A stretch of DNA of 42,461 nt from a virus (lineage: Duplodnaviria > Heunggongvirae > Uroviricota > Caudoviricetes), in IMG/VR virus record IMGVR_UViG_2703719365_000009; one strand, given 5' to 3'. The position numbers and the translations under genes were made by a program. The notes under the pieces were generated by a model. The model searched no databases and was not told where the DNA came from. It saw nothing but the letters and a program-made list of their open reading frames with translations. Position 1 is the stretch's first letter. Each line of letters opens with the position of its first letter. Shown here piece by piece: positions 1 through 36,330 of this stretch.

Positions 1-1349
1 CCATCGATGCCGCCAGCCGCACCCTGACGCTGGACCGTGAGGTGACACTGCCGGAGACCGGTGCCGCCACGGTGAACCTGATTAACGGCAGCGGTAAGCC
101 GGTGAGTGTGGACATCACCGCACACCCCGCGCCGGACCGGATACAGGTCAGTACCCTGCCTGATGGTGTGGAGACATACGGGGTGTGGGGACTCTCCCTG
201 CCGTCACTGCGCCGTCGCCTGTTCCGCTGTGTCTCCGTCCGGGAAAACACGGACGGCACCTTTGCCATCACGGCGGTGCAGCACGTACCGGAAAAAGAAG
301 CCATCGTGGATAACGGTGCCCGCTTTGAGCCGCAGTCAGGTTCCCTGAACAGCGTCATCCCACCGGCAGTACAGCACCTGACGGTGGAGGTGAGTGCAGC
401 TGACGGCCAGTATCTGGCGCAGGCTAAATGGGACACGCCGCGGGTGGTGAAGGGCGTGCGCTTCAGTCTGCGCCTGACCAGTGGTAAGGGAACGGATGCC
501 AGACTGGTGACCACCGCCATCACCGCAGACACGGAGCACCGTTTCAGCGGCCTGCCGCTCGGGGAATACACCCTGACGGTGCGGGCGATAAACAGCTATG
601 GCCAGCAGGGTGAACCTGCCACCACCACCTTCCGGATTGCCGCACCGGCAGCACCGTCGCGGATTGAGCTGACGCCGGGCTATTTTCAGATAACCGCCAC
701 GCCGCATCTTGCCGTTTATGACCCGACGGTACAGTTTGAGTTCTGGTTCTCGGAAAAGCGGATTGCGGATATCAGGCAGGTTGAAACCGCAGCCCGCTAT
801 CTTGGCTCGGCGCTGTACTGGATAGCTGCCAGTATCAATATCAAACCGGGCCATGATTATTATTTTTATATCCGCAGTGTGAATACTGTTGGCAAATCGG
901 CATTCGTGGAGGCTGTCGGTCGGGCGAGCGATGATGCGGAAGGTTACCTGGATTTTTTCAAAGGAGAAATCGGGAAAACACATCTGGCCCAGGAGCTGTG
1001 GACGCAGATTGATAACGGTCAGCTTGCGCCGGACCTGGCTGAAATCAGGACGTCCATTACGAATGTCAGCAATGAAATCACGCAGACCGTCAATAAAAAA
1101 CTGGAAAATCAGAGTGCGGCAATCCAGCAGATACAGAAAGTTCAGGTTGATACAAATAATAACCTGAACAGCATGTGGGCCGTGAAACTGCAGCAGATGC
1201 AGGACGGACGCCTTTATATTGCGGGTATCGGTGCCGGTATTGAGAATACGCCAGCAGGAATGCAGAGTCAGGTGCTGCTGGCGGCAGACAGGATTGCGAT
1301 GATTAATCCTGCGAATGGCAACACAAAGCCGATGTTTGTAACCAGGTGA
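1..1349 (+). pseudogene. J: Host specificity / tail tip protein J (lambda J-like), upstream portion; frame enters from window start and is cut by the Mu-like insertion
   Basis: Frame open from nt 3 (5-prime partial). Translation ends ...[22 protein letters not shown] then TR-stop at the insertion end; the conserved continuation [15 protein letters not shown] reappears in frame at 40716. Confidence 0.85.
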
Positions 1350-1515
1350 ATCATTTGATACCGACAAGGGTTTTAGTGAAAGGAGGTGAAATCACCTGTA
1401 AGATGCTGAAATAAAACAGGTGATGTATACTTCGGCCGGAAAACTCTTTTTGATACCGACTGCTCAACAAATAGTCAAAAGATCAAAAAACGGCGACACA
1501 TTTGATACTGCTAAT
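1347..1515 (+). repeat. Left end (attL-like): three transposase-binding-like repeats
   Basis: TTTGATACCGAC at 1354-1365 and 1449-1460, TTTGATACTGC at 1501-1511; first site TGAATCATTTGATACCGACAAG resembles the Mu L1 site as recalled; same motif inverted at the right end. Confidence 0.6.
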
Positions 1516-1692: not shown

Positions 1693-2304
1693 TTAACCAA
1701 CAACATTTTTCTTTACTGTCACTGCCCCTAATTCCTGGGTGGCGTTATTGCTCGAGTTGTACTTCTCAATAACGCGCAAAATCTCTTTGTCTGTTTCTTC
1801 ACTTCCCGCCATTCCTATCTTTATTGCATTTTTTAGTACGGGACGTAATGGCAAGGCATCAATGATGCTTTCTACCGCATCCTGGCTGATTGTAGATGTA
1901 TTCATTGCTGCCAGCCTGACAAGGTTGTTAGTACCTTCTCGCCTGATGAATGTAAGGATTAATTGCTTCTCTTGGGGGCTTAGAGAGCTAAGCGCCTGAT
2001 CAATACCCGAACCTGAATCGCAATTGTTTTCGATTTTTCCGCATTTATCTTCGTTCTTGCCTGTGACCAACCATTCGAGTGAACAATTACAGGCTTTAGC
2101 TATTAAGGCCAGTTTATCCAAAGGAGGGAAGTTTTTCCCCTTCCTGTAATTTCTTACTGTGGCTTCAGATAGTCCACAAAGGGTCGCCAGTTCGACGTTT
2201 GTCATGTTTCCCATAGCCATAGCTAAGCGTTCTGAAAATCGGTTTATTCCTTCCATATCAATAAACCGTTCCGCACTGGATACGGTTTTTTCTGCCTTAT
2301 CCAT
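1693..2304 (-). CDS. Prophage repressor (Mu c-like position; HTH-type regulator)
   Basis: 203-aa ORF divergent from ner-A-B; RBS AGGGGG before ATG at 2304; sits about 350 bp inside left end as in Mu; product call by position and HTH-like N-terminus. Confidence 0.7.
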   Translation of the reverse strand: MDKAEKTVSSAERFIDMEGINRFSERLAMAMGNMTNVELATLCGLSEATVRNYRKGKNFPPLDKLALIAKACNCSLEWLVTGKNEDKCGKIENNCDSGSGIDQALSSLSPQEKQLILTFIRREGTNNLVRLAAMNTSTISQDAVESIIDALPLRPVLKNAIKIGMAGSEETDKEILRVIEKYNSSNNATQELGAVTVKKNVVG

Positions 2305-2460: not shown

Positions 2461-2727
2461 ATGAGGGTATCCAGACAAGCATCGAATAATTTGTTTGTTC
2501 GAGAGGGGTGTGACTGGTCTGCTAAAGCGGTATATGCAGCCCTTGAAAACAAAGGCACAGACCTCCCTGAACTGGAAAGGGAGTTAGGATTAAAAAGCGG
2601 ATCAATGCGCAATGTGTTTTACCGCCAGTGCCGTAAATACGAAGCCGCCATCGCCGAAAAAATAGGGGTTGAACCTGCTGTAATCTGGCCCAGCAGATAC
2701 CAGGTGGACGCCAGAGAAGTGGCTTGA
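2461..2727 (+). CDS. ner: Ner-like DNA-binding early regulator
   Basis: 88 aa; C-terminal VIWPSRYQ motif matches Mu Ner as recalled; first gene of early operon with RBS GAGAGGA. Confidence 0.85.
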   Translation: MRVSRQASNNLFVREGCDWSAKAVYAALENKGTDLPELERELGLKSGSMRNVFYRQCRKYEAAIAEKIGVEPAVIWPSRYQVDAREVA

Positions 2728-2737
2728 TGGGGGATGT

Positions 2738-4828
2738 ATGTGGGTAACAGCAAAAGAATGTGTTGGTCTTCCTGATTTACCAATGATGGAACATAACATT
2801 CGCCATCGACTCACAAAAGCAGCTGCGGGAAATGCAGCCATGTTACGCAAACGTAAGGGGACAAAAGCAATCGAATTTAATATCGATTGTTTGCCTTCTG
2901 GCGCGCAACAAGTATTGCGTGAACGTTATGCCCTTCAACTGATGACGCAAAAAGCTGATGAATCACCGGCTCCGGTGGTGACAAAGGCCAGACGCTCGCC
3001 TGCCGTGGTTGATGCTGTGGAGGCATATCGCGGATCACCACAACTGATGGTTGAACGCCTTAATGCCCTGACTGAAAACCAGCGCCAGGTGGCTGATGCA
3101 CGAATCGCGATCGTCAGCGAAGTGATGAAAGTCGCGCAACAACCCGGTTTCAGCTGTGCGAAAGCTATCCGGTTTATCGTTGACAACCTGGCACGTTCGC
3201 AGCTGGACGAGCGCATTGTGGCAATGGTTGAGACGGCGAACGCCAAAAAGGGAAACAGCCGTGCGTTGAGTGAAATCACGCTGAAACGCTGGATTGCAGC
3301 CTTTAACAAGGCGCAGAACGCCGCCGAACGCCTGCTTTTACTGGCACCGGGTAAGCGCCAGGAAATAAAAGCCGAAGATATTAACTGGCTGCCCGAATTT
3401 CTGGCGCAGTATCGCCAGTCAAACGGCCGACCAATGACCGAGGCTTACGAGGATTTTGTCGCTGAATGGCAGCACCGGCACGCTGATGAGCCTTATATGC
3501 TCGATATCATGCCGTCTTATGACACCATTCGCCGCGCAATGAAGAAACTGCCGGAAGTGGTGAAACAAAAAGGCCGGGTGACCGGCAGTGAATACCGCCA
3601 GCTTGAGGGATTCACGCGCCGCGACTGGTCCAGAATGCCGGTGAATTATGTCTGGATTGGTGACGGTCACGGCATGAAGCTGAAATGCGCACACCCGGTT
3701 CACGGTCGGCCATTTGCACCGGAAGTGACCTTTGTTATCGACGGTGGCACGCGCTTTGTGGTGGGCTGGAGCCTTGACCTGGCTGAAAATGTTTTCGCCG
3801 TAGCCGGTGCCATACAGCACGGCATTCGCCATCACGGCAAACCGTTTCTGTATTACTCGGATAACGGCTCCGGGGAAACCGCCGACATCCTGGATAAGGA
3901 GGTTGTGGGGATACTGCCGCGACTGGGGATTAATCACCCGACCGGGATTGCCGGTAATCCGCAGGGACGAGGCATTATCGAACGGCTTAACCGCACATTA
4001 CCGATGCGCATAGCCCGTAAATACCGCACCTATTTCGGGAAAGGTGCAGATCGCGAGACGTTACGCAAAACCAACCGCGATTTACGCTCGGCATTTACTG
4101 CCCTGCAACAGGGCAAACGGCTGAACGTCCGGCAGCAGTCAGCGATGCGTGATTTACCGTCCTGGTCTGAACTGATTGATGCCATTCGTGACGGTGTTGA
4201 GTGGTACAACAACCGGCCGCACGATGAATTACCGGTGAAGCCGAACGGCAAGCATTACAGCCCGGCGGAGTTCAGAAAAAAACGCCTGGCGGAAGAGGAC
4301 ACGGAAATTGAATGGCTGTCCGATGTTGAGCTGCGGGATATGTTCCGGCCGATGGTGGAACGCCCTGTAAGACGCTGTGAAATACGCTGGCTGAATAATA
4401 TTTACTACGCGCCCGAGCTGCGTGACGAGCATGGTCGTAAGGTGCTTATCAGCTATGACATTCATGATGCCGAACGAATTACCGTACGTCGCCTGGATGG
4501 CAGCGTGATTTGCGAGGCGGTATGGGACGGTAATAAACGCGAAGCCTTCCCGGTCAGCGCGGAATACTACAAACAGCAGCAACGCCTTAAAGGCATGCGT
4601 AAACGCGCAGAGGAAAAAATCCGTGATGCCGAGGATGAGGTTGTCAACGTGCTGGAGCACAAGCCGCAGGAGCCCTGGCTGGAAAACATATACCGCCCTG
4701 TGGGTAATACGGTGGCCGTTCAGCAACCTGCCGTTGATGATGAGCCTGATGAAGAATACGAGCGTAATTTCCAGCGGGGATTGCAGTTGCTCGAAGCGAA
4801 ATTAAAAGAAAATGACCCGCTGGCCTGA
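2738..4828 (+). CDS. A: Transposase A (MuA-like DDE transposase)
   Basis: 696 aa; N-terminus MWVTAKECVGLPDLP resembles MuA N-terminus; position after ner. Confidence 0.93.
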   Translation: MWVTAKECVGLPDLPMMEHNIRHRLTKAAAGNAAMLRKRKGTKAIEFNIDCLPSGAQQVLRERYALQLMTQKADESPAPVVTKARRSPAVVDAVEAYRGSPQLMVERLNALTENQRQVADARIAIVSEVMKVAQQPGFSCAKAIRFIVDNLARSQLDERIVAMVETANAKKGNSRALSEITLKRWIAAFNKAQNAAERLLLLAPGKRQEIKAEDINWLPEFLAQYRQSNGRPMTEAYEDFVAEWQHRHADEPYMLDIMPSYDTIRRAMKKLPEVVKQKGRVTGSEYRQLEGFTRRDWSRMPVNYVWIGDGHGMKLKCAHPVHGRPFAPEVTFVIDGGTRFVVGWSLDLAENVFAVAGAIQHGIRHHGKPFLYYSDNGSGETADILDKEVVGILPRLGINHPTGIAGNPQGRGIIERLNRTLPMRIARKYRTYFGKGADRETLRKTNRDLRSAFTALQQGKRLNVRQQSAMRDLPSWSELIDAIRDGVEWYNNRPHDELPVKPNGKHYSPAEFRKKRLAEEDTEIEWLSDVELRDMFRPMVERPVRRCEIRWLNNIYYAPELRDEHGRKVLISYDIHDAERITVRRLDGSVICEAVWDGNKREAFPVSAEYYKQQQRLKGMRKRAEEKIRDAEDEVVNVLEHKPQEPWLENIYRPVGNTVAVQQPAVDDEPDEEYERNFQRGLQLLEAKLKENDPLA

Positions 4829-4898: not shown

Positions 4899-5831
4899 AT
4901 GACTGATATTAACGATGTAATCAAGACCATTGATGAACTTATTGATGGCGGCGTACTGACGCAGTATGCCATCGCCAGAGAGGCGGGAATTTCCGACGGC
5001 ACATTATCGGCTTTCCGTAAGGGAAAATATAAAGGCGATAACGCTGCTGTGGCTGCTTCCCTGCGTTCCTGGTATGAGAACTGGAATAAACAAAGCGCAC
5101 TGCCGGAACCGCCGCAGTTTGTGGAAACGCAGACAGTCCAGGAGCTGCGCGCACTGTTTCAGGCGGTTCGTCTGATGGGCTGTATTAACGTTATTGTGGG
5201 CGTACCGGGTGTGGGTAAAACGGCCACTGCCCGTAATTACTGCCAGGAGCAACCAAACACCTGGATGATCACCCTGTCACCCGCGCACTCCAGCGTCACG
5301 GAGTGTCTGCTGGAGCTGGCCGATGCGCTGGGGATTGATTACACCCGCGCGAACAAAGGGGCATTATCCCGCGCCATCCGCCGTCGCCTGATGGGAACGC
5401 GTGGACTGGTGATTGTGGATGAGGCGGATCATCTGGGTATTGACGGTCTGGAGCAACTCCGGGCAATTCAGGACGCCACGGGGATCGGGATGGTGCTTAT
5501 TGGTAACCCGCGCGGATTGTTTAAAGGTGGACGCCGCGCCTTTGATGATTTATCGCGCCTGTTCAGCCGTCTTGCCCGTACAAAACAACTTCGCAAGGCC
5601 AAAAAGGCGGATGTGCTGGCCATTGCCAGGGCATGGGGTATCAGTGGTGAGGCCGAGCTGGCCGTCATGCAGGCTATCGCTGAAAAGCCGGGAGCGTTAC
5701 GCGTTCTGACACATACGCTTAACCAGGCGTGGCTCACCGCCAGCGGTGAAGGCGCGGCGCTGACAGAAAAACATATTAATGCGGCCTTTAAAGAGGTTTA
5801 TACCAACCCTGAATTACTCTCACAGGTGTGA
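4899..5831 (+). CDS. B: Transposition ATPase B (MuB-like AAA+ target DNA activator)
   Basis: 310 aa; Walker A GVPGVGKT; strong overall resemblance to MuB including PEPPQFVETQTV and VIVDEADHLG segments. Confidence 0.93.
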   Translation: MTDINDVIKTIDELIDGGVLTQYAIAREAGISDGTLSAFRKGKYKGDNAAVAASLRSWYENWNKQSALPEPPQFVETQTVQELRALFQAVRLMGCINVIVGVPGVGKTATARNYCQEQPNTWMITLSPAHSSVTECLLELADALGIDYTRANKGALSRAIRRRLMGTRGLVIVDEADHLGIDGLEQLRAIQDATGIGMVLIGNPRGLFKGGRRAFDDLSRLFSRLARTKQLRKAKKADVLAIARAWGISGEAELAVMQAIAEKPGALRVLTHTLNQAWLTASGEGAALTEKHINAAFKEVYTNPELLSQV

Positions 5832-7183: not shown

Positions 7184-7714
7184 ATGGCAAAACGCGTTAC
7201 AAAATTAAAGGCCGCAGCAGAGGCGGCACCGCAGACCCGTGAAGAGGTCAGCCGCGATATCCGCACCCTGGGCGATATTCAGCGAGAGGCGCTGCGCCTG
7301 GAAACAGCGATGAATGATGAAGTGGCAGAAATCACCGCCCGTTATACGCCGCAGATTGAAAGCCTTAAAAAAGAAATCAAAGTGCTTTTTAAGGGGATTC
7401 AGGACTGGTGCAAAACCAACCGTGATGAGCTGACGAACGGCGGCAAAACCAAAACTGCCAATCTGACCACCGGAACGGTGTCATGGCGACTGGGGAATCC
7501 ATCATGCAGCGTCAGTCGTGATGTGGAAGGTGTGATTGAAATGCTGCGCCGTATGGGCCTTGAGCGTTTTATCCGCACGAAAGAGGAAGTGAACAAGGAA
7601 GCGGTCCTGGCGGAGCCGGATGCAGTGAAAGGCATTGCCGGTATTAAGGTGAATAAAGGCGCTGAAAGTTTTTATGTCGAGCCTTTTGAACAGGACGCCG
7701 GACTGAATAAATAA
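7184..7714 (+). CDS. gam: Gam-like host-nuclease inhibitor (DNA end-binding, Ku-like)
   Basis: 176 aa; segments RDELTNGGKTKTANL, SWRLG, FIRTKEEVNKEA match Mu Gam as recalled. Confidence 0.88.
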   Translation: MAKRVTKLKAAAEAAPQTREEVSRDIRTLGDIQREALRLETAMNDEVAEITARYTPQIESLKKEIKVLFKGIQDWCKTNRDELTNGGKTKTANLTTGTVSWRLGNPSCSVSRDVEGVIEMLRRMGLERFIRTKEEVNKEAVLAEPDAVKGIAGIKVNKGAESFYVEPFEQDAGLNK

Positions 7715-12033: not shown

Positions 12034-12459
12034 ATGGCAGAAACTCAGATGAGCATGTTTGGTGGTGACAGTGAGCAACTGCACGCCCTTATCGACCGCC
12101 TTGATGACATCCCTGATGATGTTCTCAAAAAGAACTGGCCGCGGACCCTGTCAGAACTGGTTGAAGTCACCGGCGCAGAACTTCAGCGTCAGGGGATTGA
12201 GCCGGTACTGGCCGGCAAACTGGCACGCAAGGTGGCTGCGGCTCAGGCAGCCTATATGGGCGGACGGGGTTATTACCTGCCGGTCGGGGAATCTCTCTTT
12301 GCCGAGCTGCGAAACAATGAGATATTTTCGCGCTGGGACCGGGGCGAGAAAATTGAATCCCTTCGCCGCCATTACCGGATGTCAGAAACCCAGATTTATA
12401 CCGTCATACGTGAACAGCGCCGTCTGCATCTGGCAAGAACACAACCGCCACTTTTCTGA
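12034..12459 (+). CDS. Mor/C-family transcription activator (C-like by position, immediately upstream of lys)
   Basis: 141 aa; C-terminal YLPVGESL...IYTVIREQRRL resembles Mor/C family HTH region as recalled; RBS GGAGG. Confidence 0.75.
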   Translation: MAETQMSMFGGDSEQLHALIDRLDDIPDDVLKKNWPRTLSELVEVTGAELQRQGIEPVLAGKLARKVAAAQAAYMGGRGYYLPVGESLFAELRNNEIFSRWDRGEKIESLRRHYRMSETQIYTVIREQRRLHLARTQPPLF

Positions 12460-15093: not shown

Positions 15094-16757
15094 TGAATAA
15101 CGCCGAAGAACTCTCACCCTTACTGACGAATACCGTCTCCACCCGCAAAATTGATCTGGCCGGTGAAAAAGCCCTGCTGGGCGTGGATGTGCCGGACAGC
15201 CTTGATTTGCCCGGTGATATGCCGGTGTTTCTGGATTATCAGGCCCGCTGGTTTGAGGATGAAAGCGAGGTCTGCATCGCGGAAAAATCCCGCCGCACCG
15301 GGCTTACCTGGGCGGAAGCCGGGCGTAACGTCATTACCGCTGCAAAACCGAAGCGGCGTGGTGGCCGCAATGTGTTTTATGTGGGGTCAAAGCAGGAGAT
15401 GGCGCTGGAATATATTTCTGCCTGCGCACTGTTCTCCCGTGCCTTTAACCAGCTGGCAGATGCTGATGTGTATGAGCAGACCTTCTGGGATCGGGATAAA
15501 AAAGAAGAAATTCTGACCTACATGATCCGCTTTCCGAACAGTGGATTCAAAATTCAGGCACTGTCTTCCCGTCCGTCAAACCTGCGCGGCCTTCAGGGGG
15601 ATGTGGTGATTGATGAAGCCGCGTTCCACGAGTCACTGGATGAGCTTCTCAAGGCGGCAATGGCGCTTACCATGTGGGGCGCGCGCGTGCGTATTATCTC
15701 CACGCATAACGGCGTCGATAATCTGTTTAATCAGTACATTCAGGAAGCCCGCGAGGGGCGCAAGGATTACAGCGTCCACCGCATTACCCTGGATGATGCC
15801 ATTGCGGACGGGCTGTACCGTCGTATCTGTTATGTCACCGGCCGCGAATGGTCACCGGAAAGCGAGCAGAAGTGGCGTGATGATCTCTACAAAAACGCCC
15901 CGACCCGTGAGGATGCCGACGAGGAATACGGCTGTATCCCGAAAAAATCCGGCGGTGCCTATATTCCTCACGCGCTTATTGAAATGGCGATGATCCGCGA
16001 CATCCCGATTCTGACGTTTGAAGCCCCGGACGACTTCATCAGCCGTGCCGCATGGCTGCGTGAATCGGAGGTTTTAACCTGGTGTGAAGAACATTTAAAA
16101 CCGCTTTTAGAGGCGTTAAATCCCCGTTCCCGCTTCAGCTTCGGGGAAGACTTTGCCCGCACCGGAGACCTGTCCTGCTTTGTGCTGCTGGAAATCACTG
16201 AATCCCTGGCAAAACGCGAGGTGTTTCGCGTGGAGCTGCGCAACCTGCCGTATGCCCAGCAGGAGCAGGTGATGATGTACATCCTGACCCGCGTTCCGGC
16301 GCTGGTCGGTGCGGCGTTCGACGCCACCGGTAACGGCGGCTATCTGGCCGAAGCCGCGCTGCTGGCCTTTGGCCCGGACATCATCGACTGCGTGATGTTA
16401 TCGCCGAAGTGGTATGGCGAGTGGATGCCAAAACTGAAGGCCGAGTTTGAGGATCAGAATATCCTCGTCGCCCGCCATCAGACCACGCTTGATGATTTGC
16501 GCCATGTGAAGGTGGTGAACGGTATCCCGCAAATCGACAAGGGGCGTACGAAGGACCAGAACGCAACGGCTGTGAACGCCCGCCGCCATGGTGATTTTGC
16601 CGTGGCGCTCTGTATGGCAAACCGGGCGTCATACATGGAGGGCTTCATCCTGGATGAATCAGCCTGTCAGGCGCTGCCGGAGCGGTCGCGGGCAATGGAG
16701 GGCGGTTATCGTGATGACGATGAGGCATATCATGAATTTGATCGGGGGTGCTGGTAG
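15093..16757 (+). CDS. Terminase large subunit (Mu gp28-like)
   Basis: 554 aa; position and size; start overlaps upstream stop. Confidence 0.85.
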   Translation: MNNAEELSPLLTNTVSTRKIDLAGEKALLGVDVPDSLDLPGDMPVFLDYQARWFEDESEVCIAEKSRRTGLTWAEAGRNVITAAKPKRRGGRNVFYVGSKQEMALEYISACALFSRAFNQLADADVYEQTFWDRDKKEEILTYMIRFPNSGFKIQALSSRPSNLRGLQGDVVIDEAAFHESLDELLKAAMALTMWGARVRIISTHNGVDNLFNQYIQEAREGRKDYSVHRITLDDAIADGLYRRICYVTGREWSPESEQKWRDDLYKNAPTREDADEEYGCIPKKSGGAYIPHALIEMAMIRDIPILTFEAPDDFISRAAWLRESEVLTWCEEHLKPLLEALNPRSRFSFGEDFARTGDLSCFVLLEITESLAKREVFRVELRNLPYAQQEQVMMYILTRVPALVGAAFDATGNGGYLAEAALLAFGPDIIDCVMLSPKWYGEWMPKLKAEFEDQNILVARHQTTLDDLRHVKVVNGIPQIDKGRTKDQNATAVNARRHGDFAVALCMANRASYMEGFILDESACQALPERSRAMEGGYRDDDEAYHEFDRGCW

Positions 16758-18346
16758 TGGGACGCATAATTGATCTTGACGGAAAACCTTTCTCCTTTGA
16801 CCCGGAGATGCAGAGTGCCGTGCTGGATATTCCGCAGATTGCCAGCCGTTATATTGAACATCCGGCCTCGGGTATCACCCCGAACCGGGCGGCACAGTGC
16901 CTTCGCGGAGCTGAACGTGGCGATCTGATTGCCCAGTCCGATCTGGCCGCTGACATTGAAGAAAAGGATACCCACCTTTTTGCAGAGCTGGGCAAGCGAC
17001 GCCTTGCCATTCAGGGGGTGTCCTGGAGTATTGAGCCGCCCCCGAACGCCAGCGCGAATGAGAAAAAGGACGCGGAAATGCTCGACGAATATCTGCATTC
17101 CGCCGACTGGTTTGATGCCATGCTGTTTGATGCCACCGATGCCATCCTGAAGGGCTATTCCTGTATGGAGATTGAGCACGGGATGCTCGGTAAAATGCAC
17201 ATCATCCGCGCCATCCGCTGGCGTGACAGCGGGCATTTCTGCCTTAACCCGGATGATTTGAGCGAACTGCGGCTGCGTGACGGCAGCCATGCCGGGGTGG
17301 CGTTTCAGCCCTTTGGCTGGATAGTGCATCAGTCGCGTTCACGCACTGGCTACGGTGGTGCGACGGGGCTTGTCAGAACGCTTATCTGGCCGTTCATTTT
17401 CAAAAACTATTCCGTGCGCGATCTGGCTGAATTTCTGGAGGTGTACGGCCTGCCGATGAAGGTCGGTAAATACCCGTCCGGGGCAACACCGGAGCAGAAA
17501 AGCGCCCTGATGCGGGCGGTGATGGATATCGGGCGACGTACAGGCGGGATCATCCCGGCCGGGATGTCGCTGGAGTTTCAGGCGGCAGCGAACGGTCAGG
17601 CCGATCCGTTTGAAACCATGATTTCGTGGGGGGAGCGTTCCATCTCCAAAGCTATCCTCGGCGGCACGCTGACCACGGAAGCCGGAGACAAGGGCGCACG
17701 TTCGCTGGGTGAAGTGCATAACGAGGTGCGCCGGGAAATCAGGGATTCTGATTTACGTCAGCTGGCCGCCACGCTGAACCGCGATCTGGTGTATCCGCTG
17801 TATGCCCTGAACACCGCCCACGCCATTGATATCCGTCGCCTGCCGCGTATCTGTTTCCAGACAAAAGAGCCGGGGGATATCACCAAAATCACCAGTGCGG
17901 TGATGCAGCTCAGTACGGGGATGGATATTCCTGATCCCTGGGTGCGGGAGCAGACCGGTATTCCACAGCCTGCCCCCGGTGAAGCCATCTTCCGTGTCCG
18001 TCAGAGTGGCAATGAACCTGCTCAGACAGACAAAGAGATGCCACCGGAAAAACAGGAGAAGACAGAGCAGACAGCGCTGGCTGCCAGACTGCCGGAAGCG
18101 AAGAGCAGCCCCCGAGATGAACTGGACGACATGGGGGATGCGGTGCCTGCCCGCCGGTTACAGGAGGCCATCGACCCGGTACTGGAGCCGGTCATTGAAG
18201 CCATCAGAACGCGGGGGCTGGCGGAGGCACTGGCAGACCTGCCTGCCCTTTACCGTGAAATGGATGATTCCCGCCTGATGACGCTGCTCAGTGATGCCAT
18301 GTTTGCTGCGGAAATGAAGGGGATGCTGGATGGCACAGGGGATTGA
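16748..18346 (+). CDS. Portal protein (Mu gp29-like)
   Basis: 532 aa; GTG start overlapping terminase stop; follows terminase. Confidence 0.85.
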   Translation: MLVVGRIIDLDGKPFSFDPEMQSAVLDIPQIASRYIEHPASGITPNRAAQCLRGAERGDLIAQSDLAADIEEKDTHLFAELGKRRLAIQGVSWSIEPPPNASANEKKDAEMLDEYLHSADWFDAMLFDATDAILKGYSCMEIEHGMLGKMHIIRAIRWRDSGHFCLNPDDLSELRLRDGSHAGVAFQPFGWIVHQSRSRTGYGGATGLVRTLIWPFIFKNYSVRDLAEFLEVYGLPMKVGKYPSGATPEQKSALMRAVMDIGRRTGGIIPAGMSLEFQAAANGQADPFETMISWGERSISKAILGGTLTTEAGDKGARSLGEVHNEVRREIRDSDLRQLAATLNRDLVYPLYALNTAHAIDIRRLPRICFQTKEPGDITKITSAVMQLSTGMDIPDPWVREQTGIPQPAPGEAIFRVRQSGNEPAQTDKEMPPEKQEKTEQTALAARLPEAKSSPRDELDDMGDAVPARRLQEAIDPVLEPVIEAIRTRGLAEALADLPALYREMDDSRLMTLLSDAMFAAEMKGMLDGTGD

Positions 18347-19661: not shown

Positions 19662-19782
19662 CGGTCAGTGGCGGGGGTCGAACCCGCATACATGATCCAC
19701 CCGGAGGCAGGCACCGACTTTACCAGTTAAGCGTACACTGACCGCCTGCTTATTTTATATTCATATTTTATACGGAGGCAAT

Positions 19783-20432: not shown

Positions 20433-21557
20433 ATGAAGACGAAAAACACGCCCAAACTTGCTTATGCCATTCTGAATGCCATCAGCCTGTCCGCAGACGG
20501 GGACGGTGACTGGTGTCAGATCATGCCAGCCGGTCGGGTAAAGGCCCGTGACGGTCGCCCGGAAAAACCGGCCGAGGGCTGGCTGATCAACCATGCAGCC
20601 GTTGAGCGCATGGTCTCCCGGGTTGTGGCGCTCAATCAGCCGGTGAAAATTGACTACAACCACCAGACCCTGATTAAGGGGCATCAGGCACCGGCTGCCG
20701 GTTTTGTGATGGCCTCACCGGAGAATTTTCGCTTCAGTGAAGAGCGTGGCTTCGAGGTGCGCCCGAAGTGGAACCCTCCGGCCCTTGAACATCTGCGTAA
20801 TAACGAATTCCCCTGGTTTTCACCGGTGATTGGCTATGACGAGAACACCGGCGAACCTGTCGAACTTCGGATGCTGGCTATTACCGGTGACCCCGGTCTG
20901 ACCGGCATGAATCCTGTCGCCGCGCTGTCGGCGGATGACCTTTATAACGCCTTAAACCCTCCTTTAAAGGATACCTCCATGAATGAGCAATTACGCCAGT
21001 TGCTGACGGCGCTCGGTCTGACCGTGGCTGACGGTGACGAATTTACGCCGGAGCTGGGCACGGCGGCGCTGTCTGCCCTCACCGGGATCAAAACCCGTGC
21101 GGATGCACACGACAACCTGAAAACACAGGTCGCCAGTCTGTCGGCAGAGCTGGAAACCGCAAAAGGCACACCGGCTGGCGGCAGTATTGATCTGACGAAA
21201 TACGTGCCCGTTGAAACGTATAACGCCCTGCGTACCGAATACGTTGCGCTGTCGGCGCAGCACGGCAGCACCACGCTGGAGCAGGTGCTGGACAAGGCTG
21301 AATCCGAAGGGCGCATCTTCAAAAGCGAACGCGGCTATCTGGAACAACTGGGCGGGCAGATTGGCGTTGCGGCACTTTCTGCACAGCTTGACGCCCGCCA
21401 GCCGGTTGCGGCCCTGACCTCTCTTCAGACCGACACCGTGACCGTGCCGGATAAAAAGACTGCCACCGCTGCGCTGTCGGCTGAAGATATCGCGGCCGCC
21501 AAACTGCTGGGTAAAACCGAAGCCGAGTTCCTGAAAATGAAAGAGGAAATGCAATAA
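20433..21557 (+). CDS. Head protease / scaffold protein (Mu I-like)
   Basis: 374 aa; position before major head subunit. Confidence 0.8.
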   Translation: MKTKNTPKLAYAILNAISLSADGDGDWCQIMPAGRVKARDGRPEKPAEGWLINHAAVERMVSRVVALNQPVKIDYNHQTLIKGHQAPAAGFVMASPENFRFSEERGFEVRPKWNPPALEHLRNNEFPWFSPVIGYDENTGEPVELRMLAITGDPGLTGMNPVAALSADDLYNALNPPLKDTSMNEQLRQLLTALGLTVADGDEFTPELGTAALSALTGIKTRADAHDNLKTQVASLSAELETAKGTPAGGSIDLTKYVPVETYNALRTEYVALSAQHGSTTLEQVLDKAESEGRIFKSERGYLEQLGGQIGVAALSAQLDARQPVAALTSLQTDTVTVPDKKTATAALSAEDIAAAKLLGKTEAEFLKMKEEMQ

Positions 21558-22504
21558 TGCCTACCCCGATTACACCGGCGATGATCACCGCCCTGATGAC
21601 GGGCTACCGTTCTGATTTTCAGGCCGGGATGTCCATGGCCCCGTCGCAGTATAAAAAAATTGCGATGACCGTGCCCTCCACATCGAAATCCAACACCTAC
21701 GGCTGGCTGGGGCAGTTCCCGCAGTTCCGTGAGTGGATCGGCTCCCGCGTCATCGAGAAGATGAAAGCCTATGGCTATGCCATCGTGAACAAAACTTTTG
21801 AAGGCACTGTCGCCATTAGCCGCGATGACTTCGAAGACGACAACCTCGGTATTTATTCCCCGTTGTTCCAGGAGATGGGGCGCGCTGCGGCGGTACAACC
21901 GGATGAGCTGGTCTTTGCTGCCCTGCGTGACGGGATCAGTGCGGCCTGCTATGACGGTCAGAACTTCTTTGATACCGAACATCCGGTTTACCCCAAAGTG
22001 GATGGCTCCGGGGATGCGCAGATGGTCAGCAATATGTTTGTGGCAAAAACCGGCTCTGTCGGCGCACAGGCTGATTACAGCGGTCCGGCCTGGTATCTGC
22101 TTGACTGCTCCCGCGCGGTAAAACCGCTGATTTATCAGGATCGCCGTAAGGCTGAACTGGTTGCCCAGACCAAAGTCGATGAAGGTCGCGCATTCACCGA
22201 TAACGAATTTGTGTTCGGTGCATCCGCCCGTCGCAATGTGGGCTACGGCTTCTGGCAGATGGCCTACATGATGCAGTCACCGCTGACGCTGGATGCACTG
22301 TGGCACGGCTGGTCAGCCATGCGCGAATTTACCGCTGACGGTGGCCGCAAACTCGGCATCAAACCCACCCATATTGTTGTCCCCACCTCGCTGGAAAAAC
22401 AGGCGGTGCAGCTGCTGGAGCGTGAACTGTTCGCAGACGGAAACGCCACCGTTTCTAACGAGATGAAGGGCAAGCTGGAGCTGGTTGTCGCGGATTATCT
22501 GTAA
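21557..22504 (+). CDS. Major head subunit (Mu T-like)
   Basis: 315 aa; start overlaps upstream stop (TAATG). Confidence 0.82.
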   Translation: MPTPITPAMITALMTGYRSDFQAGMSMAPSQYKKIAMTVPSTSKSNTYGWLGQFPQFREWIGSRVIEKMKAYGYAIVNKTFEGTVAISRDDFEDDNLGIYSPLFQEMGRAAAVQPDELVFAALRDGISAACYDGQNFFDTEHPVYPKVDGSGDAQMVSNMFVAKTGSVGAQADYSGPAWYLLDCSRAVKPLIYQDRRKAELVAQTKVDEGRAFTDNEFVFGASARRNVGYGFWQMAYMMQSPLTLDALWHGWSAMREFTADGGRKLGIKPTHIVVPTSLEKQAVQLLERELFADGNATVSNEMKGKLELVVADYL

Positions 22505-23874: not shown

Positions 23875-24120
23875 ATGAAAACCATCTTTATCAAACCCGC
23901 GCCGGGACGCCTGATTCGTGATCCCGACACAATGCGCCCGCTGGCACAGGAGGGGGAGGAAAAGCCCTTTACGCCGTTCTGGTGTCGGCGTCTTGATGAC
24001 GGCGATGTCATTCAGGCTGAAAAAGCCGCTGAAGAGGCTCCGGCTGTATCTGCGGATGCAACGACTGCGACAGAAAAACCGGTCGCCCAACCGGCATCCG
24101 ATAAGGAGAAACCGCAATGA
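23875..24120 (+). CDS. Small head-tail region protein (Mu gp38 position)
   Basis: 81 aa; starts immediately after upstream stop. Confidence 0.55.
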   Translation: MKTIFIKPAPGRLIRDPDTMRPLAQEGEEKPFTPFWCRRLDDGDVIQAEKAAEEAPAVSADATTATEKPVAQPASDKEKPQ

Positions 24121-25619
24121 TTAATTTTGACGGGATCGGTAATGACCGCCGTATACCGCTGATTGAGGTTGAGTTTAATAACTCCATGGCTGTCACCGGC
24201 ACTCCGGCACAGCGTCAGTGTGTGCTGCTGTTTGGTCAGGCGAGAATGAAAGAGAATGCCGTGGACGGTGCCGGTGTTCTGGATGTTCCGGTCAGGATCA
24301 CCCGTGCGTCTCAGGCAACAGAACTCTGGGGGCGCGGCTCCATGATTGCCCTGATGGTGGCGGAATTTATCGCCATCAATCCTGATGCTGAACTGTATGC
24401 CATTGCTCAGGGGAACGGCACCGGACAGGCAACGGCTGCGGCCATGAATCTGACCGGAACGGTCACCCGTGACGGGATTGTTTATGCCTGCGTGGGGGGG
24501 CGGCGTTATACACTTCCGGCACCAAAAGGTAAGAAAGGCAAAGAACTGACCGACGAGCTGGCCGCGCTGATCAATGCCGATCCTGACGCGCCCTTCACGG
24601 CCTCCTCTGGTGCAGGAAGTGGTGATAATGGCGCAGGTCTGAAAGGGTCTCTGGGGATCACCGCCCGCTTTACCGGTGAATGCTCCGTTCATGATGTGCG
24701 CCTGAACTATTACGACGGGGAAGCAACCCCGGAAGGAATACAGGTCGCTATAGCCTATCCGAAACAAAAAGCGGCTAACCCGGATATCACCCGAAGCGTG
24801 GCGGGTATGGGCGATCGCCAGTACAACTATGTCGTCATGCCCTATAAGGATGATGCAAACCTGAAAATCATCAGTGATGAGCTTCTGAAACGCTGGGGAC
24901 CGGCCAAAATGTCTGACGGCGTGCTGTGGCTGGCACATACCGGCACGTTTGGTGAGGTGCAGGCATTCGGGGCAAAACGCAATGATTTTCTGGCGACCTG
25001 CACATCCATTCCCAAAGCCCCTGAACCGGATTACCTCTGGGCAGCGGCGGTCTGTGCCACCTGTGCACCCTCTCTGGGAGCAGATCCTGCGCGTCCGCTT
25101 CAGACGCTGGCGCTTCCGTCACGCATGGCCCCGGCTCCGGCCGATCGTCTGACGCGTGAAGAGCGTAACAGTCTGCTGTGGGGAGGGATTGCCACGGTCA
25201 GTGTGGCTGCCGGTGATGTGGTTCAGATCGAACGTCAGGTGACCATGTATCGCCAGAACGTGTACGGCGAAAGTGATCCCAGCTATCTGGATGTGGAAAC
25301 CATCTACACCCTCTCCTGGCTGCGTTATTCCCTGCGTACTTTTATCACACAACGTTTTCCGCGCCATAAACTGGCTGATGACGGGACGCCCGTTCGTGCC
25401 GGTCAGAATATCGTGACGCCGGAGATCATGAAGCTTCAGTTAATTTCGCTGGGTGAAGAGTGGGTGGAGCTCGGGCTGGTCGAAAATCTGGACACCTTTA
25501 AAAAGAATCTGCTTGTGGAGCGTAATGCGTCAGATCGAAACCGTCTTGACGTGTTATGCACGCCGGATCTGGTTAACCAGTTCCGCTTCCTGGCAGCACA
25601 GATCCGTTTCATTTTGTGA
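24117..25619 (+). CDS. Tail sheath protein (Mu L-like)
   Basis: 500 aa; RBS AAGGAGA; size and position. Confidence 0.85.
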   Translation: MINFDGIGNDRRIPLIEVEFNNSMAVTGTPAQRQCVLLFGQARMKENAVDGAGVLDVPVRITRASQATELWGRGSMIALMVAEFIAINPDAELYAIAQGNGTGQATAAAMNLTGTVTRDGIVYACVGGRRYTLPAPKGKKGKELTDELAALINADPDAPFTASSGAGSGDNGAGLKGSLGITARFTGECSVHDVRLNYYDGEATPEGIQVAIAYPKQKAANPDITRSVAGMGDRQYNYVVMPYKDDANLKIISDELLKRWGPAKMSDGVLWLAHTGTFGEVQAFGAKRNDFLATCTSIPKAPEPDYLWAAAVCATCAPSLGADPARPLQTLALPSRMAPAPADRLTREERNSLLWGGIATVSVAAGDVVQIERQVTMYRQNVYGESDPSYLDVETIYTLSWLRYSLRTFITQRFPRHKLADDGTPVRAGQNIVTPEIMKLQLISLGEEWVELGLVENLDTFKKNLLVERNASDRNRLDVLCTPDLVNQFRFLAAQIRFIL

Positions 25620-35769: not shown

Positions 35770-36330
35770 ATGCTGATTGGCTATATACGCGTATCAACAA
35801 ATGACCAGAACACCGGTTTACAAAGAAATGCGCTGGAATGTGCAGGATGTGAGCAGATTTTTGAAGACAAAATGAGTGGTAAAACGACACAGCGGCCGGG
35901 ACTGAAGCGGGCACTGAAGAAACTAAAACCCGGTGACACACTGATGGTCTGGAAACTGGACAGGCTGGGGCGCAGTATGCGCCACCTTGTTGCGCTGACA
36001 GATGAATTACAGCAACAGGGGATAAATTTTCGTAGTCTTACTGACAACATTGATACGTCAACCCCCATGGGGCGCTTCTTTTTTCACATAATGGGTGCGC
36101 TGGCAGAAATGGAGCGTGAATTAATTGTCGAACGGACACGGGCTGGTCTTGCAGCTGCCCGTGAAAGGGGACGAACCGGCGGCAGACCCCGCCGTCTCAC
36201 GCAGGAACAATACGAGCAGGTCGGGCGTTTACTGGCCGGGGGTGTCAGTCGAAGACAGGTGGCACTTATTTTTGATATCGGCCTTTCAACCCTTTATCGT
36301 TATTATCCTGCGAGCGTTTCGGAAAAATAA
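35770..36330 (+). CDS. gin: Gin/Hin/Pin-family serine DNA invertase
   Basis: 186 aa; N-terminal GYIRVSTNDQ catalytic serine motif and C-terminal HTH; RBS AAGGAAGG; adjacent to gixR. Confidence 0.95.
   Translation: MLIGYIRVSTNDQNTGLQRNALECAGCEQIFEDKMSGKTTQRPGLKRALKKLKPGDTLMVWKLDRLGRSMRHLVALTDELQQQGINFRSLTDNIDTSTPMGRFFFHIMGALAEMERELIVERTRAGLAAARERGRTGGRPRRLTQEQYEQVGRLLAGGVSRRQVALIFDIGLSTLYRYYPASVSEK

Follow-up and report, generated by a model that had tools for sequence, protein, structure and literature searches.

The window, which is the whole 42,461-nucleotide stretch of DNA analysed here (IMG/VR record IMGVR_UViG_2703719365_000009), carries sequence of a lambdoid tail-tip gene J on both sides, left of position 1340 and right of 40715, and a Mu-like prophage between them. 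The initial annotation had reported the octamer ATGTTTGT at both junctions, and the positions of the two copies (1332–1339 and 40716–40723) confirm this. The features at the junctions, in the register argued for below, are the following.

1 to 1336, plus strand: 5' part of the interrupted lambdoid J, the target, through the left duplication copy (Pfam Ig_J, Ig_J_second and Phage_Tail_Tip on ORF 42–1346; 100% to annotated gpJ)
1332 to 1339, plus strand: left octamer ATGTTTGT, read as target A, duplication TGTT and the first three bases of the prophage, TGT
1333 to 1336, plus strand: target-site duplication, left copy TGTT (in other copies the bases outside TGT.../...ATA vary yet match each other over 4 bp)
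1337 to 40716, plus strand: Sp18-type Mu-family transposable prophage, 39,380 bp, 5'-TGTAACCAGG...GCCGCGCTATA-3' (same termini in 19 of 19 copies; Mu-like genes)
1337 to 1338, plus strand: left terminal dinucleotide TG, canonical (TA in two divergent relatives)
40715 to 40716, plus strand: right terminal dinucleotide TA, non-canonical, Mu having CA (19 of 19 copies)
40716 to 40723, plus strand: right octamer ATGTTTGT, read as the last base of the prophage, A, duplication TGTT and target TGT
40717 to 40720, plus strand: target-site duplication, right copy TGTT (junction comparison across copies)
40717 to 41369, plus strand: 3' part of the interrupted J (contiguous with 1–1336 in intact gpJ alleles)

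The octamer is ordinary in frequency, with 3 copies in the window against 1.83 expected and at least 3 in 25 of 100 shuffles; the third copy, at 22034, is unrelated. Its significance lies in the fact that both of the other copies fall exactly at the junctions of a 39.4-kb insert, not in rarity.

The genes of the insert follow the order of annotated relatives. Those identified by domain are listed here.

1693 to 2304, minus strand: CI-type repressor gene (Pfam Phage_CI_repr, HTH_3)
2461 to 2727, plus strand: small HTH_35-family DNA-binding gene at the position of Ner in Mu (Pfam HTH_35; Mu gene order)
2738 to 4828, plus strand: DDE transposase, 696 aa (Pfam Mu-transpos_C, E 1.5e-17; HTH_Tnp_Mu_1)
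4899 to 5831, plus strand: MuB-type AAA+ transposition ATPase, adjacent to the transposase (Pfam Phage-MuB_C, E 2.5e-25; AAA_22)
7184 to 7714, plus strand: Gam (Pfam Phage_Mu_Gam)
12034 to 12459, plus strand: Mor-type transcription activator (Pfam Mor)
16748 to 18346, plus strand: Mu-type portal protein (Pfam Portal_Mu)
21557 to 22504, plus strand: major head subunit, gpT type (Pfam Mu-like_gpT)
24117 to 25619, plus strand: contractile tail sheath (Pfam Phage_sheath domains)
35770 to 36330, plus strand: serine invertase of the resolvase family (Pfam Resolvase, HTH_7; in annotated relatives it adjoins oppositely oriented tail-fibre genes)
36430 to 38469, plus strand: cargo ORF, 679 aa, with DUF6645 and a SASA carbohydrate-esterase domain (domain search)
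39851 to 40588, plus strand: Mom DNA-modification gene, the last before the right end (Pfam Mom)

These data place the element among the transposable (Mu-like) phages in the broad sense, as it encodes a transposase and a MuB-type ATPase, occupies varied sites, carries a Mu morphogenesis module and, at 39,380 bp, has a genome in the ~36–40 kb range. The transposase is 23% identical to MuA along its whole length (BLASTP, E 8e-14). A phmmer search of the transposase against PDB reached no MuA chains and returned only weak matches to retroviral-integrase cores, so the relation to MuA was shown by the direct BLASTP comparison instead. The candidate catalytic residues are D309, D375 and E415; the two aspartates align opposite the MuA catalytic aspartates, and E415 is part of the motif GIIERLNR, which matches the core of retroviral integrases. 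The DUF6645/SASA (sialate O-acetylesterase-type) ORF between the invertase and com/mom is kept in all annotated relatives. PGAP annotates a 'tRNA-OTHER' of ~80 nt between head-morphogenesis and virion-morphogenesis genes in copies L001–L005, L011–L013 and L015, and this annotation is missing in the Z570, 2014C-3011 and SRCC 1675 copies. The equivalent region of the window is ~19662–19782; ARAGORN found no tRNA anywhere in the window.

A synthetic empty site, built from 832–1331, one ATGTTTGT and 40724–41223, is 100% identical over 1008 nt to many annotated intact gpJ genes. Thus, the pre-insertion sequence is known and contains the octamer once. Together with the Mu-like gene content, this match upholds the original view that a Mu-type element is inserted in gene J and that the two positions are its junctions. 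Alignment to an uninterrupted J allele had been proposed as the check that would define the pre-insertion sequence, and such alleles do exist with a single ATGTTTGT, but the empty site alone cannot choose the register. When intact J alleles are aligned to the left junction the match continues through 1339, which is consistent with an identity of TGT in the target and at the prophage start. Because the empty site leaves the register ambiguous, independent insertions at other sites were needed, and these settle it.

The boundaries were set by base-by-base register alignment with 18 further copies at other sites, located on chromosomes, on one plasmid and in two database entries for Stx phages. 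All 19 copies lie at different sites, start with T(G/A)TAACCAGG and end with CGCCGCGCTATA, and the sequence immediately outside is unrelated; the longer shared termini, present in every copy, are T(G/A)TAACCAGGTGAATCATTTGATAC at the start and GTATCAAAAAAATCGCCGCGCTATA at the end. Bar single-base variants, the ends TGTAACCAGGTGAATCATTTGATAC... and ...GTATCAAAAAAATCGCCGCGCTATA are the same in Sp18 of Sakai and 17 other copies. Right-end alignments reached the final base in 60 of 60 sampled genomes. Since the TGT at 1337–1339 and the A at 40716 are present in every copy whatever the target, they belong to the prophage, whose ends read 5'-TGTAACC...CGCTATA-3'. All 19 copies end in TA on the right, while on the left 17 have TG and two have TA, L011 (strain M18, in hsdR) and L015 (strain HH35, in a diguanylate cyclase gene), which start TATAACC rather than TGTAACC. 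These two copies have TA at both ends and their duplication is still 4 bp.

In 17 of the 19 copies the two flanks come from the same gene, and 16 of these 17 show a 4-bp direct repeat. The sixteen repeats are TGTT, CGTT, CATA, ACTA, GGTG, TGCG, CATC, TACC, CGCA, TACG, CGAT, TAAA, GATA, ATTA, ATCA and AGAG. Synthetic empty sites built on the 4-bp model matched intact etk (100%), ydeE (100%) and melA (99.6%), each ungapped over 496 nt. The sole 5-bp duplication, CCAAA, is in cheB of strain TOE17 (L012, NZ_CP069093.1), where the termini are unchanged and a 5-bp-model empty site is 100% identical to intact cheB over 495 nt. In this copy the small HTH protein beside the transposase, WP_001310454, is the same as in the 4-bp copies L014 and L016. 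The same method applied to Mu in E. coli W as a control recovered TG...CA ends and the 5-bp repeat GCCGC; this control represents one independent site, as strain B-766 has the same Mu insertion as E. coli W. At exactly the boundaries derived here, the records LC727881 and LC727895 carry a 4-bp 'duplication due to insertion' feature entered independently by their depositors, and apart from these two annotations our search for a published description of a 4-bp duplication in Mu-like phages found no paper.

Two copies with flanks from unrelated genes, L003 and L013, were left out of the duplication count. Both L003 (NZ_CP074995.1, 'plasmid' p8479-1) and L013 (NZ_CP166879.1, strain 48) are complete Sp18-type prophages with no flanking repeat, the mismatched flanks being a ydhX side against yeaW and a terC-like against a ferritin-like gene. 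Strain 48 has four Sp18-type places and the p8479-1 'plasmid' bears chromosomal genes. The flanks of these copies suggest either a rearrangement via the prophage or recombination of one copy with another.

Each end of the element also contains three repeats of the form TTTGATAC(C/T), at +18, +113 and +165 from the left terminus and at +18, +40 and +75 from the right.

1354 to 1361, plus strand: left-end repeat 1, TTTGATAC core, separated from the left terminus by 17 nt, a presumed transposase-binding site
1449 to 1456, plus strand: left-end repeat 2, TTTGATAC core (repeat search)
1501 to 1508, plus strand: left-end repeat 3, TTTGATAC core (repeat search)
40635 to 40642, minus strand: right-end repeat 3, TTTGATAC core (repeat search)
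40670 to 40677, minus strand: right-end repeat 2, TTTGATAC core (repeat search)
40692 to 40699, minus strand: right-end repeat 1, TTTGATAC core, likewise separated from its terminus by 17 nt and in register with left repeat 1

The equal 17-nt spacing between terminus and first repeat at the two ends provides independent support for A40716 as the right terminus. The repeats are presumed transposase-binding sites, and as such their layout, one plus two at the left and three together at the right, would resemble that of the L1–L3 and R1–R3 MuA-binding sites of Mu. Between left-end repeats 1 and 2 there is a perfect 9-nt inverted repeat, ATCACCTGT at 1391–1399 and ACAGGTGAT at 1416–1424, with 16 nt between its arms.

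Taken by itself, the window is fitted equally well by a 5-bp duplication of ATGTT or TGTTT, and these readings are excluded only by the other copies. Were ATGTT the duplicated sequence, the element would run TGT...CTAT and the A at 40716 would be target DNA. However, an A follows ...CGCTAT in 18 of the 18 other copies, while the matching base of the left flank differs between copies (T, T, C, T, C...), and the cheB insertion keeps this A and then displays its full 5-bp repeat. Removing the A would also break the equal 17-nt register of both ends, and we regard the ATGTT register as extremely unlikely. The TGTTT register, which would assign the T at 1337 to the target and leave an element of GTAACC...CTATA, suits not only the window but also the etk insertion, where the target by chance continues with a T. 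Yet in 10 of the 15 other 4-bp sites a base other than T follows the repeat and T nonetheless always precedes GTAACC, and in the empty sites of melA and ydeE this position is an A; this register has just as slight a chance of being correct as the previous one.

A duplication of 8 bp or longer, comprising all of ATGTTTGT and bounding an element of AACCAGG...GCGCTAT, would explain the perfect repeat at both junctions and its single copy in the empty site. This is the least credible of the readings, indeed close to inconceivable, as the TGT and the terminal A accompany the element wherever else it has inserted and the repeats at the other insertions never exceed 5 bp. Finally, the enzyme might make a Mu-like 5-bp stagger, with one base of the duplication lost later by repair or deletion. 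The 5-bp repeat of one insertion and the placement of the enzyme in the Mu transposase group by its domains are compatible with such a loss. It would, however, have to occur identically in 16 of 17 independent events, each time leaving intact termini and an exact 4-bp repeat, whereas genuine Mu in the same species retains 5 bp, and we consider it very unlikely.

The reading in which the prophage spans 1337–40716 and TGTT is duplicated, that is, in which an Sp18-type Mu-family element transposed into the J gene of a lambdoid prophage, is in our judgement very probably correct, given the junction comparison. The initial annotation had noted that no register combines TG...CA ends with a 5-bp duplication and had suspected non-canonical termini, and both points hold, the right end being TA-3' instead of CA-3'. 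A clean 5-bp duplication with TG...CA ends, which would have made the matter trivial, is not what the data show, as they give 4 bp and TG...TA. The proposals that did not survive are a 5-bp duplication in one of four registers, or a longer one, since the other copies fix it at 4 bp (TGTT), and extra bases at the ends, which are unneeded because an element of 1337–40716 accounts for the junctions.

In the same reading, four of the eight octamer bases are the target duplication and the other four a chance identity of the element termini with the target. The target A1332 equals the last base of the prophage, and target bases 40721–40723 (TGT) equal its first three. An identity of four bases has a chance of ~1/256 for uniform bases. 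At the 15 other 4-bp sites the 5' flanking base is A in two and the 3' flanking base is T in five.

How might a Mu-family enzyme generate this junction? The transposase and the MuB-type ATPase would assemble on the three TTTGATAC(C/T) repeats at each end and expose a 3'-OH at ...TTACA-3' (left end, bottom strand) and at ...CTATA-3' (right end, top strand). Joining of these 3'-OH ends to target phosphates spaced by 4 bp, or occasionally by 5 bp, would leave gaps whose repair duplicates TGTT (1333–1336 and 40717–40720). A TA-3' transferred end is unusual for this transposase superfamily. Across the Sp18-type copies the boundaries, the 4-bp duplication and the TG/TA termini all appear in the integrated products, from which we infer where cleavage occurs and that strand transfer is staggered by 4 bp. 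The target sequences (n = 15) show a tentative purine/pyrimidine pattern, R-Y | N-R-Y-N | R-Y, with its axis of symmetry at the middle of the 4-bp repeat, as a 4-bp stagger would predict. The one insertion with 5 bp indicates that the stagger is not strictly fixed. It seems likely that the Sp18-type transposase, as a natural Mu-family enzyme, works in a transpososome that imposes a 4-bp stagger, occasionally 5, and that it accepts both TA and CA as the transferred 3' end.

The element is an ordinary new insertion of a known prophage type, Sp18. It has the same termini and gene order as, and genes near-identical to, Sp18 of E. coli O157:H7 Sakai and the 'Mu-like phages' of STEC (PMC2669165, PMC7430833, PMC10132054). 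The chromosomal location varies within this group, and Sp18 of Sakai likewise has a 4-bp repeat, TAAA, at its flanks. Sp18 is reported to be packaged efficiently and to have no circular form (PMC2669165). Compared to the Sakai-type copies, the present element has another insertion site and another allele of the immunity region; in these copies the match to the left-end query stops after its first 87 nt (96.6%). Over its left 1.36 kb, the element shares 99.9% identity with a prophage of O157:H7 strain Z570. The junction in J itself is absent among 5,426 complete E. coli genomes.

Like Mu (Muvirus), the element is a transposable temperate myovirus with the order repressor, small HTH gene, transposase and AAA+ ATPase, then Gam, Mor, Mu-type portal and head genes, an invertase region and com/mom. 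In contrast to the TG...CA ends and 5-bp duplication of Mu (PMC8705779 and our own control), the element has TG...TA and 4 bp, its transposase is only 23% identical to MuA and its end-repeat sequence is unrelated to that of Mu. By duplication length, termini and kinship to MuA, it falls outside Mu proper. By transposase, the nearest isolated virions are the Yersinia phages vB_YpM_5 and vB_YpM_6 (78%), followed by Klebsiella phage Kp4866-3 (58%), Haemophilus SuMu (43%) and Mannheimia 3927AP2 (43%). The SuMu paper gives variable terminal sequences without termini or a duplication length (PMC3447690).

According to a 2021 study (PMC8705779), Mu makes a 5-bp and B3 a 6-bp duplication, a 5/6-bp duplication is a key identifying feature, and every Mu- or B3-like phage described by that date had kept TG–CA ends, with the TA–TA ends of Leptospira prophages presented as new. 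Some of the Leptospira prophages have TA at both ends, like the M18 and HH35 copies. B3-like and Leptospira phages, however, have B3/Tn552-family transposases and 6-bp duplications, whereas the element has Mu-type domains and 4 bp; by duplication length it does not group with the B3-like or Tn552-type phages. Retroviral integrases are a mechanistic analogue only: the transposase core aligns weakly to the avian sarcoma and Rous sarcoma virus integrase cores at the DNG...ER motif, while architecture, accessory ATPase and end structure all differ, and no membership is implied. Within the retroviral integrase group the stagger varies by enzyme (4, 5 or 6 bp).

A 4-bp scar and a TA right end in a transposase family with Mu domains depart from the picture drawn in PMC8705779 and are under-documented. 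The rule of delimiting such prophages by a 5/6-bp scar and TG–CA ends is broken on both counts by the Sp18 family, and these family-level properties have practical value for prophage delimiting. Related left ends occur in 232 of the 5,426 complete E. coli genomes, with 283 genomic places in all, and if our reading is right, the rule of thumb misses a family present in ~4% of them. RefSeq, for example, places Sp18 of Sakai (NC_002695.2, L021/L022) at 5040971–5079729, while junction comparison gives 5040970–5079724 with TAAA duplicated, so that the annotated left boundary lies 1 nt too far in and the right boundary 5 nt too far out. If the proposed properties of the enzyme are correct, the Sp18-type transposase would be a comparison partner for MuA in asking what fixes the stagger and how strictly a terminal CA is needed. 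The current understanding of transposition is unchanged by these data; one detail is refined, which is of modest, specialist interest.

Many of the copies lie within other mobile elements, including two gpJ genes, one Stx1a phage, one Stx2c phage and one IS609, and one further copy is in a terB-like gene beside prophage-type genes. A previous study found 6 of 10 such prophages in mobile elements (PMC10132054). Downstream of J in the window, a lom/ail-like outer-membrane-protein ORF (41437–42078) contains a perfect 42-bp tandem duplication at 41722–41815, which comprises 2.2 copies with a 100% match and is in frame (14 codons).
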